This document shows positions 57,321-59,336 of a DNA stretch of 64,000 nt, piece after piece. The DNA is taken from the IMG/VR virus record IMGVR_UViG_3300027976_000033. One strand, given 5' to 3'. Under the pieces are notes generated by a model. The model did not search any database. It saw only the letters and a list, made by a program, of their open reading frames with translations, and was not told where the DNA came from. The stretch comes from a virus. A program made the translations under genes and the position numbers. Position 1 is the stretch's first letter; each line of letters opens with the position of its first letter.

Positions 57321-57674
57321 ATGATTATGTGGATTTGTTTAAACAATGGTTATTTGTCAGCAGTACAGTCTGAAGATAATTATGAAGTCTTGGTAGTACG
57401 AGCAAGAGCTAGATCACACTTAGAGGATAACTTTCCAGAGCATGATATCATTGACTGGGAAGGTACTGATTATCTATTCCGTATCTATATTACTAAGATT
57501 GAGTTTGCAGAGTTTCTATTTGATAAAGCTCTTGCAATAGAATATGATAACTTCAAGAATAGTGTAACCGATAAGAAATTACATAATATGTATGTTTCAT
57601 TCTGGAATGCTGCTTATCGGACATTCGGTGGAAAACTCTTTGATAGATATAGGAATAATTACTCTTCTAAGTAG
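57321..57674 (+). CDS. hypothetical protein
   Basis: RBS AGAGGA. Confidence 0.45.
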   Translation: MIMWICLNNGYLSAVQSEDNYEVLVVRARARSHLEDNFPEHDIIDWEGTDYLFRIYITKIEFAEFLFDKALAIEYDNFKNSVTDKKLHNMYVSFWNAAYRTFGGKLFDRYRNNYSSK

Positions 57675-58402
57675 TGAGCTTTCCAGACATAATGATGAGC
57701 ATCATGATCTCCAACTCTACCCTTACCGTCTCGATGCTTTATTATTGTAGGCTTTGGTTCAATTTTTAATTTAGAACCTCTTTTCATTAGAAATTCTTTT
57801 TCATGCTGATTGGCAGATATTAGTGCTACATATGCTCCAGGACTTTGATCCTTCTTCAAATGGATATGAAGAGAGTGAGTAGCATTTCCTTTGCCGCTTG
57901 TCCCAACTTCTGAAAACTCTTTAGCCTGATCTTGGTCTAATGATGTTGAAGTATATGCGGGCAAATGGATGTGTCTATCAGGATGTTTATAAGATTCCAT
58001 TCCTGGATGCCACCCATTCAAGCCATGATACACATGAGTATCTTCATGTAGTGGTGGAGCCTTATTAAGATAATCATCTAATCCGCGTATTTTATGCTCG
58101 TGATAACTCATAGAATCTTTGTTATCTTCTATAAGCGCATTGTTTACTCCAGTAGAATCTAGACTATAGTTAAAAACATGCATGTTCAAATTTTCATCTG
58201 AATGCTTTTTGTAATGATTACTTAAAGAATTATGATTACTTTCTTTAATAGTATTTCGACCCTTAGCATGTTTTCCATGTACTGGGATTGCTGTTATGGT
58301 AATAGCTTTAGTTTTCTTAACTAATGCTTTGAATCTTTTAAGTTTAATTTTACGAATTTTACTTATCATCATGTTGTCCTTCAATAGATGCATGCCAAAC
58401 AT
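57659..58402 (-). CDS. ADP-ribosyltransferase-like protein (R-S-E class fold, Alt/ModA/ModB-like)
   Basis: AYTSTS (STS motif) and EKEFLMKRGSKLKI (ExE ARTT-loop motif; compare iota toxin EYEVLLNHGSKFKI); first motif reads VYHG instead of VYRG; N-terminal PVHGKHAK motif. Confidence 0.55.
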   Translation of the reverse strand: MFGMHLLKDNMMISKIRKIKLKRFKALVKKTKAITITAIPVHGKHAKGRNTIKESNHNSLSNHYKKHSDENLNMHVFNYSLDSTGVNNALIEDNKDSMSYHEHKIRGLDDYLNKAPPLHEDTHVYHGLNGWHPGMESYKHPDRHIHLPAYTSTSLDQDQAKEFSEVGTSGKGNATHSLHIHLKKDQSPGAYVALISANQHEKEFLMKRGSKLKIEPKPTIIKHRDGKGRVGDHDAHHYVWKAHYLEE

Positions 58403-59336
58403 AAGTTGTTCTTCTGTTATTACTATCGCGCTTTAATTCATGAGAATTATGTAGAACAGTTGGAGTTGGATGTATTTTTAAATTAGTGCCGCGGTGAATT
58501 AACATTTCACTTTCTTCTGGATAGAGAGAATTCTTTCCTAGATACACTGCTTTATGTTCCGGCTTAACATGAATCTTTAAGACGTGTTTAACATAATCCG
58601 ACCTACCAGTCATTCTTAGTGGTGTTTTCTCTGCTACATTTGATAACCACTTAGGTTTTTTCTCTACTTCATTTGCAAAGCCAGCGGCTACCCCACCATT
58701 TATAGATGATGAAGTATATGCCGGCATGTGTATCAATCTTTCGGGATGTTTAGCAGCTTCTTTCCCTGGGTGCCAAAAACCACATCCATGAAATGCATAC
58801 ACGTCATGTTTTCTTTTAGCCTTGTGATCAAAGGCACTATCGATATTTTTAATACCAGCTTTAGTGTTCTCAATTTTTCTTACTTTTTCTAATGCAACGC
58901 TATGTTTCCAACTATCTGGATTCATATGATCGTGAATCTCGTGGTTACCATATTTTTTAATTAGTGCGGTGTGCTCGTCAGAAAGATGCGCATTATGTCC
59001 TACACCTTTAGCTCTATCTATTAAATAATTATTAATATCTCTAGAATTATCAGTGTAATTTCTTAGACCAGACTGTCCTGTCTTTGAAACATGTTTTTCA
59101 AAGTTTTGATCTTGTGTCATCGCTTCATGGGCGGCTTCGACATCGGCTCCAATATGTTTATTGGCATTTATTGTTGAATTCAGATGATCGAGAACATGCT
59201 TAACCTGAGTAGCTTCTTTAATCTCTTTAGGTTTTTCTTTTGATGCATCATGTTTAGCGTGTGAACCATGAACAGGTTCAGCATCTATCAAAATGGGTTT
59301 TATTTTCTTTTTAATAAAAAATTTAAATTTTTGCAT
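58359..59336 (-). CDS. ADP-ribosyltransferase-like protein, paralog
   Basis: AYTSSS and ESEMLIHRGTNLKI; N-terminal ...LIDAEPVHGSHAK motif nearly identical at nucleotide level to the RnlA N-terminus. Confidence 0.6.
   Translation of the reverse strand: MQKFKFFIKKKIKPILIDAEPVHGSHAKHDASKEKPKEIKEATQVKHVLDHLNSTINANKHIGADVEAAHEAMTQDQNFEKHVSKTGQSGLRNYTDNSRDINNYLIDRAKGVGHNAHLSDEHTALIKKYGNHEIHDHMNPDSWKHSVALEKVRKIENTKAGIKNIDSAFDHKAKRKHDVYAFHGCGFWHPGKEAAKHPERLIHMPAYTSSSINGGVAAGFANEVEKKPKWLSNVAEKTPLRMTGRSDYVKHVLKIHVKPEHKAVYLGKNSLYPEESEMLIHRGTNLKIHPTPTVLHNSHELKRDSNNRRTTYVWHASIEGQHDDK

Follow-up and report, generated by a model that had tools for sequence, protein, structure and literature searches.

Two adjacent minus-strand genes in a 64,000-nucleotide stretch of viral DNA (IMG/VR record IMGVR_UViG_3300027976_000033; the whole stretch is called the window below) encode a pair of ADP-ribosyltransferases (ARTs), here named ART-A and ART-B, that agree with PF03496 and the C3-VIP2-iota group on every criterion tested except one, the arginine of the first catalytic motif. 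Histidine stands at that place in both proteins, and sequence comparison indicates that the arginine is missing throughout a large clade of phage relatives. The reading we favor, to which we assign a probability of roughly 0.55, is that the pair would be made late in infection, packaged in the phage head, trimmed by a protease and injected into the host as arginine-specific ARTs that bind nicotinamide adenine dinucleotide (NAD+) in a non-canonical way.

The window derives from an uncultured T4-like myovirus (G+C ~35%) and covers a stretch devoted to replication and nucleotide metabolism, encoding a gp43-type DNA polymerase, UvsX, helicase, primase, RnlA, NrdA/B, ThyX, RNase H, PhoH, Acb1 and DUF932; the nearest cultured relatives of the polymerase are the cyanomyovirus enzymes, at only ~49% identity. 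Nearly all genes of the window lie on the plus strand, and the ART pair forms one of only three credible minus-strand units. Its open reading frames (ORFs) and the adjoining intergenic region are:

58359..59336, minus strand: ART-A gene, 325 aa, ADP-ribosyltransferase with a predicted C3/VIP2/iota-like fold (ORF, Pfam, phrog_802, AlphaFold, Foldseek)
57659..58372, minus strand: ART-B gene, 237 aa from its likely start (ORF, Pfam, paralogy to ART-A, cluster lengths, AlphaFold, Foldseek)
59337..59402: divergent intergenic region, 66 nt, 82% A+T

A preliminary description of this DNA had placed two minus-strand ART genes here as tandem paralogs in a divergent unit with an AT-rich intergenic region, and this picture holds: the two ORFs and the intergenic region lie where it put them, with a probably shorter start for the second gene, and the catalytic halves are 31% identical over 156 aa (E 2e-20). 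The longest ORF of ART-B spans 57659..58402 (247 aa). Its true start is probably 58372 or 58369 (237 or 236 aa), because 90% cluster members are called at 236/237 aa, because GAAGGA sits 4 nt upstream, and because orthologous gene pairs overlap by 8-14 nt. From this start the 5' end of ART-B overlaps the 3' end of ART-A by 14 nt, and ART-B is therefore probably translationally coupled to ART-A.

Both ORFs match PF03496 (ADPrib_exo_Tox) far beyond chance, ART-A with 52.3 bits (E 5.9e-14) and ART-B with 50.3 bits (E 2.4e-13) at a gathering cut-off of 23.4 bits, and both match the 'Alt-like' family phrog_802 (E 7e-11 and 9e-4, respectively); a scan of the NCBIfam library gave no match. Searching the PDB with single sequences produced chance matches only for ART-A and a sub-threshold match for ART-B, whose ADP-ribosylating turn-turn (ARTT) segment alone aligned to EYEVLLNHGSKFKI of iota toxin Ia, so comparison with the PDB required a family profile. 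Built from 18 family members, this profile matches 44 PDB ARTs, the best of them C3larvin (3e-13). AlphaFold (AF2) models generated with the family alignment are confident, with predicted local distance difference test (pLDDT) scores of 79 for ART-A and 83.5 for ART-B, and Foldseek aligns them at probability 1.0 with more than 100 PDB ART chains, including C3bot, Plx2A, Certhrax, VIP2, iota and CDTa; target template-modeling (TM) scores reach 0.68 for ART-A and 0.71 for ART-B (Plx2A, probability 1.0). A few structurally close 'uncultured Caudovirales phage' proteins in BFVD had been automatically named ADP ribosyltransferase, and the N-terminal helical motif Y-T-x-x-S-x-x-x-N-x-x-L of the C3/iota group is invariant in the family. 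As modeled, both proteins have the ART fold of the C3/Plx2A/Certhrax/iota/VIP2 group, in which a split beta-sandwich is joined to a helical lobe at the N-terminus.

These results bear out much of the preliminary description, which had named two ART paralogs with intact STS and ExE motifs, likened them to the C3 and iota toxins and proposed structure prediction as a check: Pfam, the profile-to-PDB comparison and the predicted structures agree on the assignment, the fold search returned C3, iota, VIP2, Certhrax and Plx2A, and both models show the ART fold at Foldseek probability 1.0. Its claim that the proteins are also very similar to Alt, ModA and ModB of phage T4 was overstated, because hhalign of the family profile gives a probability of 65% for Alt (E 6e-5, catalytic domain only), 21% for ModA (E 1e-3) and no match for ModB (0.4%); a remote likeness to Alt is the part that stands.

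The catalytic motifs lie as follows, with ART-B residues numbered from the start at 58372:

58785..58802, minus strand: ART-A first motif VYAFHG (aa 179-184), H183 at the place of the canonical NAD-binding arginine in profile alignments
58704..58718, minus strand: ART-A YTSSS (within AYTSSS), STS motif, S209-S211
58473..58514, minus strand: ART-A ARTT region E275-S-E277-MLIHRGTNLKI (ExE)
58022..58033, minus strand: ART-B first motif VYHG (aa 114-117), H116 for the canonical arginine, with the clade-typical His at -3 (THVYHG)
57941..57955, minus strand: ART-B YTSTS (within AYTSTS), STS motif, S142-S144
57761..57802, minus strand: ART-B ARTT region E191-K-E193-FLMKRGSKLKI (ExE)

All STS and ExE motifs that had been reported for the pair are thus present in the translations, and ExE is the signature of arginine-modifying ARTs (PMC8120803). 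The reported exchange of the canonical arginine for histidine in both proteins likewise withstands comparison at the level of alignment, because the family profile lays 'hdlhvyhG' on ETVQVYRG of C3larvin, DSVTVYRG of Plx2A, ENLIVYRR of Certhrax and DNIKVYRG of 4xsg, and also aligns onto LYRS of T4 Alt, which puts H183 and H116 on the VYRG/LYRS arginine. Counting this column in 300 domains from the 157 best-scoring proteins revealed S in 182, H in 78, R in 15, A in 8 and T in 6. We considered whether the arginine-containing domains might be ancestral members of the clade, and rejected this, since all 15 come from three unrelated giant outgroup proteins with an ordinary VYRG motif; in the clade proper this column never holds arginine. 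Judged from these sequences, loss of the arginine is a property of the whole large clade, in which serine is commoner than histidine, and is not peculiar to this phage. We found no description in the literature of an STS/ExE ART family without the arginine, which is absence of evidence only.

The remaining catalytic residues are kept. The first serine of STS is present in 288 of the 300 domains and the second glutamate of the ARTT region in 290/290 aligned domains (its first position is E in 275 and Q in 12), and such retention across very divergent relatives therefore suggests purifying selection on catalysis. Histidines are conserved as well: the clade consensus H-V-Y-[S/H]-G has one three residues before the arginine column, and a second conserved pair lies in HxxHxHLPxG, directly before the ARTT region. 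These residues (the -3 position of HVY[S/H]G and HxxHxHLPxG) are candidates for replacing the contact of the arginine with the diphosphate. Mean histidine content in the family is 10.1%, and ART-B, ART-A and one neighbor are the three most histidine-rich proteins of the window.

Homology searches returned only unnamed metagenomic proteins. Among 50,697 GenBank phage records, megablast of the region, tblastn of ART-A and a search with P0035, a relative consisting of fused ART domains (a poly-ART), gave no match, and with ART-B and a relative, P0051, nothing closer came up than MuF-ART or 'minor head protein' fusions, all of them distant. The family has no member among these records, and for this reason no cultured or annotated relative was available for comparison. 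A profile search of 1.84 billion cluster representatives, by contrast, yielded 430 proteins at E<1e-30. Scanning for loci with a narrow alignment found two in IMG/VR and none in 185,579 species genomes.

The arrangement of the genes varies among relatives. The A+B pair recurs in three related loci (L006, L007 and L008) in the order DUF932 ... ART-B ART-A, inverted with respect to its neighbors; three tandem copies occur in L004 and two in L009. Of the top matches, 23 proteins have four or more matched stretches; setting aside the three VYRG outgroups leaves twenty clade proteins, which are fusions of 4-10 ART domains, among them P0018 (2377 aa), P0019 (2343 aa) and P0022, the last encoded in a 180-kb T4-like contig with a gene repertoire like that of the window. 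A gene for such a giant tandem arginine-less ART protein occupies 10001..15376 of L013. In L006 (5209..9895) and L007 (5605..9893) the divergent neighbors of the ART pair encode a radical-SAM protein, an NMNAT-Nudix fusion and NAMPT, such that an NAD+ salvage set adjoins NAD+-consuming ARTs; the window has other genes at this place.

Aligning 116 single-domain relatives revealed a common three-part N-terminus: firstly, a leader resembling the T4 capsid-targeting sequence (CTS); secondly, a tag module with the pattern (hydrophobic strand)-P-[V/T]-H-G-x-H-[S/A]-K; thirdly, a cleavage-like motif. In the pair these are:

59307..59336, minus strand: ART-A leader MQKFKFFIKK, T4 CTS-like (aromatic at 4 and 7, Ile 8)
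59253..59300, minus strand: ART-A tag module KPILIDAEPVHGSHAK (hydrophobic strand, then PVHGxH[SA]K)
59214..59222, minus strand: ART-A candidate prohead-protease site I39-K40-E41, followed by Ala42; cleavage would free the mature enzyme
58313..58372, minus strand: ART-B leader MMISKIRKIKLKRFKALVKK, basic, predicted helix
58262..58309, minus strand: ART-B tag module KAITITAIPVHGKHAK
58241..58249, minus strand: ART-B candidate prohead-protease site I42-K43-E44, followed by Ser45, in the same alignment column as E41 of ART-A

The leader consensus is M-K-[T/S]-F-K-[Q/D/E]-F-[I/L]-[K/E]-[E/K]. The T4 CTS is MKTYQEFIAE (PMC8442874), in which residues 4 and 7 determine targeting and residues 8 and 10 processing (PMC9026906); the family leader agrees with it at both targeting positions. 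The pattern M-x-x-aromatic/Leu-x-x-aromatic begins exactly at the N-terminus in 87 of the 116 single-domain relatives, as compared to 11 of ~298 other ORFs from the same loci, and the full [LIVM]-x-E at leader positions 8-10 occurs in 30 of the 116. In the ART-B model the leader helix spans residues 2-19 (pLDDT ~77), and the orthologs P0008-P0010 share with ART-B the leader pattern (R/K)FK..h.K.

The tag is carried by 97 of the 116 relatives, as one copy in 42, two in 52 and three in 3. Residues G24 and H26 of the ART-A tag are invariant in our alignment A1, and its codons differ from those of the ART-B copy. Degenerate DNA scans of IMG/VR for PVHGKHSK/PVHGSHAK found two more ARTs and one chance match and were otherwise empty, with no tag on any other type of protein. 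One further copy lies within the window: an RnlA-like ORF (9127..10407, plus strand) opens at 9127..9189 with MKPTIITSEPVHGSHARKNLS, a copy of the ART tag module, before the conserved start MEYEF at 9190, and the ATG at 9127 is accompanied by a GAGGA site and overlaps the ORF before it through ATGA. A 19-nt run (GTTCATGGTTCACACGCTA) is identical between the rnlA and ART-A tag DNA, and no tag was found in 120 RnlA homologs. From these sequences the module seems to have been transferred to rnlA recently, within the genome. The idea that the tag is a general signal is weakened by this case, with 0/120 RnlA homologs carrying it and the rnlA copy nearly identical in DNA to that of ART-A.

The third element, [ILVM]-x-E, is nearly invariant. 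Its glutamate column holds E in 159 of 176 domains, with I/L/V/M at P3 in 168 of 176 and most often Ala at P1'; E41 of ART-A is invariant in alignment A1, and the model shows disorder around it, with pLDDT <50 for residues 27-36 and 41-50. At the junctions of poly-ART proteins the form ...W..PH..-[LIVM]-x-E-A... was found at 70/74, as compared to a background of 26%. The [LIVM]-x-E motif thus precedes ART domains whether they are separate genes or fused, and this constitutes the strongest internal evidence for a processing site. In T4 the gp21 prohead protease cuts C-terminal to glutamate and trims Alt and the internal proteins (PMC9026906, PMC5694885, PMC9958956), and the contig of one relative encodes a T4-type prohead protease (PF03420). 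By analogy we regard [ILVM]-x-E↓A (the arrow marking cleavage) as a candidate prohead-protease site.

The region upstream of ART-A suggests late transcription of the unit:

59349..59372, minus strand: late-promoter-like motifs CATAAATA, AATAAATA and TGTAAATA, 13-36 nt upstream of the ART-A start

The 36-nt sequence leading up to the start is CATAAATAATAAATAATGTAAATAGGAAAAGAAAAA, and the relaxed late-promoter-like form upstream of the pair is NATAAATA. Motifs of this NATAAATA type precede three minus-strand genes, those for an endolysin, an HNH endonuclease and ART-A, and four of the nine minus-strand ATAAATA in the window fall within 80 nt upstream of these same genes. An exact T4 late promoter, TATAAATA, was also sought upstream of ART-A and is absent, so that only the relaxed form is supported there; the exact octamer is found upstream of ART genes in L001 and L007, and GATAAATAGG in L006. 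No convincing sigma-70 promoter was detected upstream of ART-A (best match 9/12). On the opposite strand, a perfect sigma-70 consensus (TTGACA, 17 nt, TG-TATAAT) at 57233..57261 lies upstream of a small ORF (57291..57674) that converges on ART-B, placing an early-type promoter beside the late-looking ART unit.

Taken together, these features suggest the following course of events. A single late transcript, started at a NATAAATA-type promoter, would carry ART-A and ART-B, the latter coupled in translation to the former; the N-terminus of each precursor, comprising the CTS-like leader and the PVHGxH[SA]K module, would steer it into the prohead core; and a T4-type prohead protease would cut after [ILV]-x-E, at IKE41↓A in ART-A and IKE44↓S in ART-B. 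The mature enzymes would then ride in the head, enter the host with the DNA and, like T4 Alt, mono-ADP-ribosylate host proteins at the onset of infection using host NAD+. This NAD+ would be bound without the beta-1 arginine (Ser, His, Ala or Thr in the clade), the conserved histidines possibly providing contacts with the diphosphate. That the enzymes are active, specific for arginine, made late, packaged, cleaved and injected is inferred from sequence, as are the part played by the histidines and the targets. Taken alone, an active ART is likelier than the whole sequence of steps, arginine specificity is probable, and the odds of packaging and injection are about even.

Several observations weigh against this course of events. 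The likeness to T4 Alt is weak, at an hhalign probability of 65%. ART-A fits the CTS at F4, F7 and I8 and has K10 instead of Glu, and the ART-B leader is offset from the CTS consensus; the PVHG module is absent from poly-ART proteins and from 19 of the 116 single-domain members; and the specificity assumed at [ILVM]-x-E↓A is taken from T4. The motif upstream of ART-A matches TATAAATA at 7/8 positions in a region of 82% A+T, and the exact octamer is not enriched in the window. Neither head genes nor a prohead protease occur in the 64 kb. Finally, alanine at the arginine column in 8 domains implies that the side chain there is dispensable, and the histidines of ART-A and ART-B may therefore have no special role at that place.

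Set against known systems, the pair is best read as Alt-like in role and C3-like in fold. With the C3 and binary-toxin ARTs (C3bot, C3larvin, Plx2A, Certhrax, iota Ia, CDTa, VIP2) it shares the modeled fold (TM up to 0.71), YxxSxxxNxxL, STS, the ARTT ExE followed by hLLxRG, and the size of the catalytic domain. Those toxins, however, are secreted bacterial proteins with the beta-1 arginine (VYRG), where the phage pair has His and its relatives Ser, Ala or Thr, and with a phosphate-nicotinamide-loop arginine that, from the alignments, appears to lack a conserved counterpart in the phage family; the phage proteins, for their part, are ~10% His and begin with a cleavable-looking leader. The pair resembles T4 Alt, a head-packaged and injected ADP-ribosylase of RNA polymerase, in coming from a T4-like phage and having STS and ExE, and further in its predicted propeptide ending in h-x-E, its probably late expression and its proposed role of an injected host-takeover enzyme (PMC9026906). 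Alt differs in its length of 682 aa, its large N-terminal domain, its retained arginine (LYRS), its lack of PVHG modules and its propeptide of 7 residues, which is not of the internal-protein CTS type; the phage family, moreover, has two or more paralogs.

The internal proteins of T4, IPI, IPII and IPIII, which are targeted by the CTS, processed by gp21 and injected, offer a parallel for the N-terminus, with a MK(T/S)(Y/F)x(E/Q)F(I/L)xE-type leader, varied cargo behind it and cleavage after Glu (PMC8442874, PMC9026906, PMC3012670). They are themselves small and basic, either non-enzymatic or inhibitory, with cleavage immediately after residue 10, whereas the ART leader is followed by one to three extra modules, a conserved Glu ~40 residues in, and an enzyme as cargo. 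MuF-ART fusions and polyvalent proteins of phages, which are head-associated ART effectors, embody the idea of ART delivery from the virion that is proposed here (PMC9503650, PMC5512222), and our matches to phrog_595 and to 'minor capsid protein' are of this type. ART-A and ART-B have no MuF or portal-associated domain, and their targeting would instead use the short leader; polyvalent proteins combine mixed effector domains, whereas the poly-ART relatives are homopolymers of one domain. A survey of viral systems of NAD and ADP-ribose metabolism reports that phage ARTs are often packaged in the head, especially in myoviruses (PMC9503650), and the pair is best described as a variant of this head-delivered theme (PMC9503650). 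Unusual here are the clade-wide loss of the arginine together with enrichment in histidine, the CTS-like leader combined with PVHG, and the batteries or polyproteins with protease-site-like separators.

An alternative to which we give a small but real chance is that both enzymes, like ModA and ModB, are produced and work within the infected cell and stay unpackaged, with a conserved N-terminus that serves, for example, localization, partner binding or autoinhibition as a propeptide cut by another protease. Two adjacent paralogous ART genes in a T4-like genome do resemble modA-modB, and the pair lies in a replication and nucleotide-metabolism region away from head genes; the poly-ART gene of L013 shares its strand with early-type genes, and we know of no counterpart of the PVHG module in T4 packaging. 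Specific similarity to the Mod enzymes is nevertheless lacking, with an hhalign probability of only 21% for ModA and no match for ModB. The leader agrees with the T4 CTS at the targeting positions, [ILV]-x-E↓A is conserved both before single domains and between fused ones, and the ART unit runs opposite to the early genes with late-type motifs, and no convincing sigma-70 promoter, upstream. ModA and ModB themselves retain the arginine (R72 in ModA; PMC8120803), lack a leader and act early, within the cell. The parallel with T4 modA-modB drawn in the preliminary description is in this respect superficial: the leaders, together with the motifs that resemble a cleavage site and a late promoter, point to an Alt-like rather than a Mod-like life style.

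We think it improbable that loss of the arginine has turned the family into NAD+ glycohydrolases, binders of NAD or ADP-ribose, or inactive decoys, which could for instance deplete or detect immune signals that the host derives from NAD. Tolerance of Ala at the arginine column would fit such re-purposing, and the position of the L006 and L007 pairs beside NAMPT and NMNAT-Nudix salvage genes would fit heavy NAD turnover. Catalysis nonetheless appears to have been kept, as near-invariant STS and ExE across hundreds of divergent sequences argue, along with an ExE set in a full ARTT region typical of protein-arginine transferases and the invariance of the N-terminal helical Y-T-x-x-S-x-x-x-N-x-x-L motif; nor does a pure NADase obviously need 2-10 diverged paralogs per phage. 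Least probable is that the His-rich, arginine-less pocket reflects another donor (NAD-capped RNA, NADP+ or a further dinucleotide) or another acceptor, with nucleic acids or small molecules being modified: the family is ~10% His with conserved His beside both phosphate-binding positions, R-S-E ARTs that modify DNA or RNA exist (PMC8120803), and ModB is reported to accept NAD-capped RNA (bioRxiv 10.1101/2021.06.04.446905), but the closest structures are all protein-modifying toxins and the motif is ExE, not QxE or a W-containing one.

Several other features of the window are worth recording. A plus-strand gene at 56508..57203 encodes a 231-aa protein with 9.1% His and a CTS-like N-terminus (MVKSFKTFTEE), and an exact TATAAATA lies near it at 56307..56314. 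In L001 the gene immediately before the ART gene, on its upstream side, encodes a protein 50% identical to this one, which is therefore linked to ARTs in two phages. It has no Pfam, PHROG or NCBIfam match; its residues 121-158 (LEHDNVMHN...IDHGGSFRY) show a weak likeness to a protein-kinase catalytic/DFG segment (VRK1, E 0.5, not significant). A homolog of the anti-CBASS protein Acb1 (37123..37623, plus strand; Pfam E 1e-25) also has a T4-CTS-like N-terminus, MMNFNEFVIEQ, with V-I-E at the processing positions. Two more proteins without annotation, encoded at 31147..32436 and 33687..34352 (plus strand), have an unusually high His content (6.8% and 7.7%), partly in runs such as HDHPH and HEQHHKIHH, and matched no family.

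The large subunit of ribonucleotide reductase is split between 39637..41253 and 41402..42667 (plus strand), which cover profile positions 60-493 and 488-795; the 148-nt gap and extra residues at the junction could reflect an intron, an intein remnant or a genuine split. The 160-aa product of 7835..8317 (plus strand) begins like a signal peptide, has ...GYRF at its C-terminus and resembles outer-membrane beta-barrels; a PF13505 OMP_b-brl gene is present in the related locus L007 (213..689), and both hint at a Gram-negative host. Paralogous small proteins encoded at 4952..5251 and 8463..8762 (plus strand) contain MORN-like repeats, GDKxWYLNGKxHREDGPAxEY.

A bolder joint reading, which we advance only tentatively, is that these proteins represent a previously undescribed, large clade of phage ARTs that has dispensed with the arginine and rebuilt the dinucleotide site around histidines, and whose 2-10 paralogs are delivered as batteries, encoded by tandem genes or joined in polyproteins that the prohead protease cleaves at [ILV]-x-E↓A. 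PVHG(K/S)H(S/A) would then be a new portable peptide, for capsid targeting or for keeping the enzymes as zymogens, that was recently pasted before rnlA. Should this be so, the clade may use a different chemistry of NAD+ binding, dependent on pH or metal, or a donor such as NAD-capped RNA.

The arginine of R-S-E is treated as a defining catalytic residue on the cholera-toxin/C3 side of the ART superfamily, yet across hundreds of sequence clusters this family strictly conserves STS and ExE and never has it. If active, the family would be a natural test of how far the arginine is really needed, and could reveal an alternative mode of NAD+ binding or an alternative donor. The leader, tag and cleavage architecture and the poly-ARTs suggest that T4-like phages of uncultured environmental hosts inject batteries of enzymes, which would extend the single-enzyme paradigm of Alt, and in engineering the short leader could find use as a packaging tag. 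The NAD-salvage genes of relatives tie these proposed injected consumers of NAD to the reconstitution of NAD+ by the phage.

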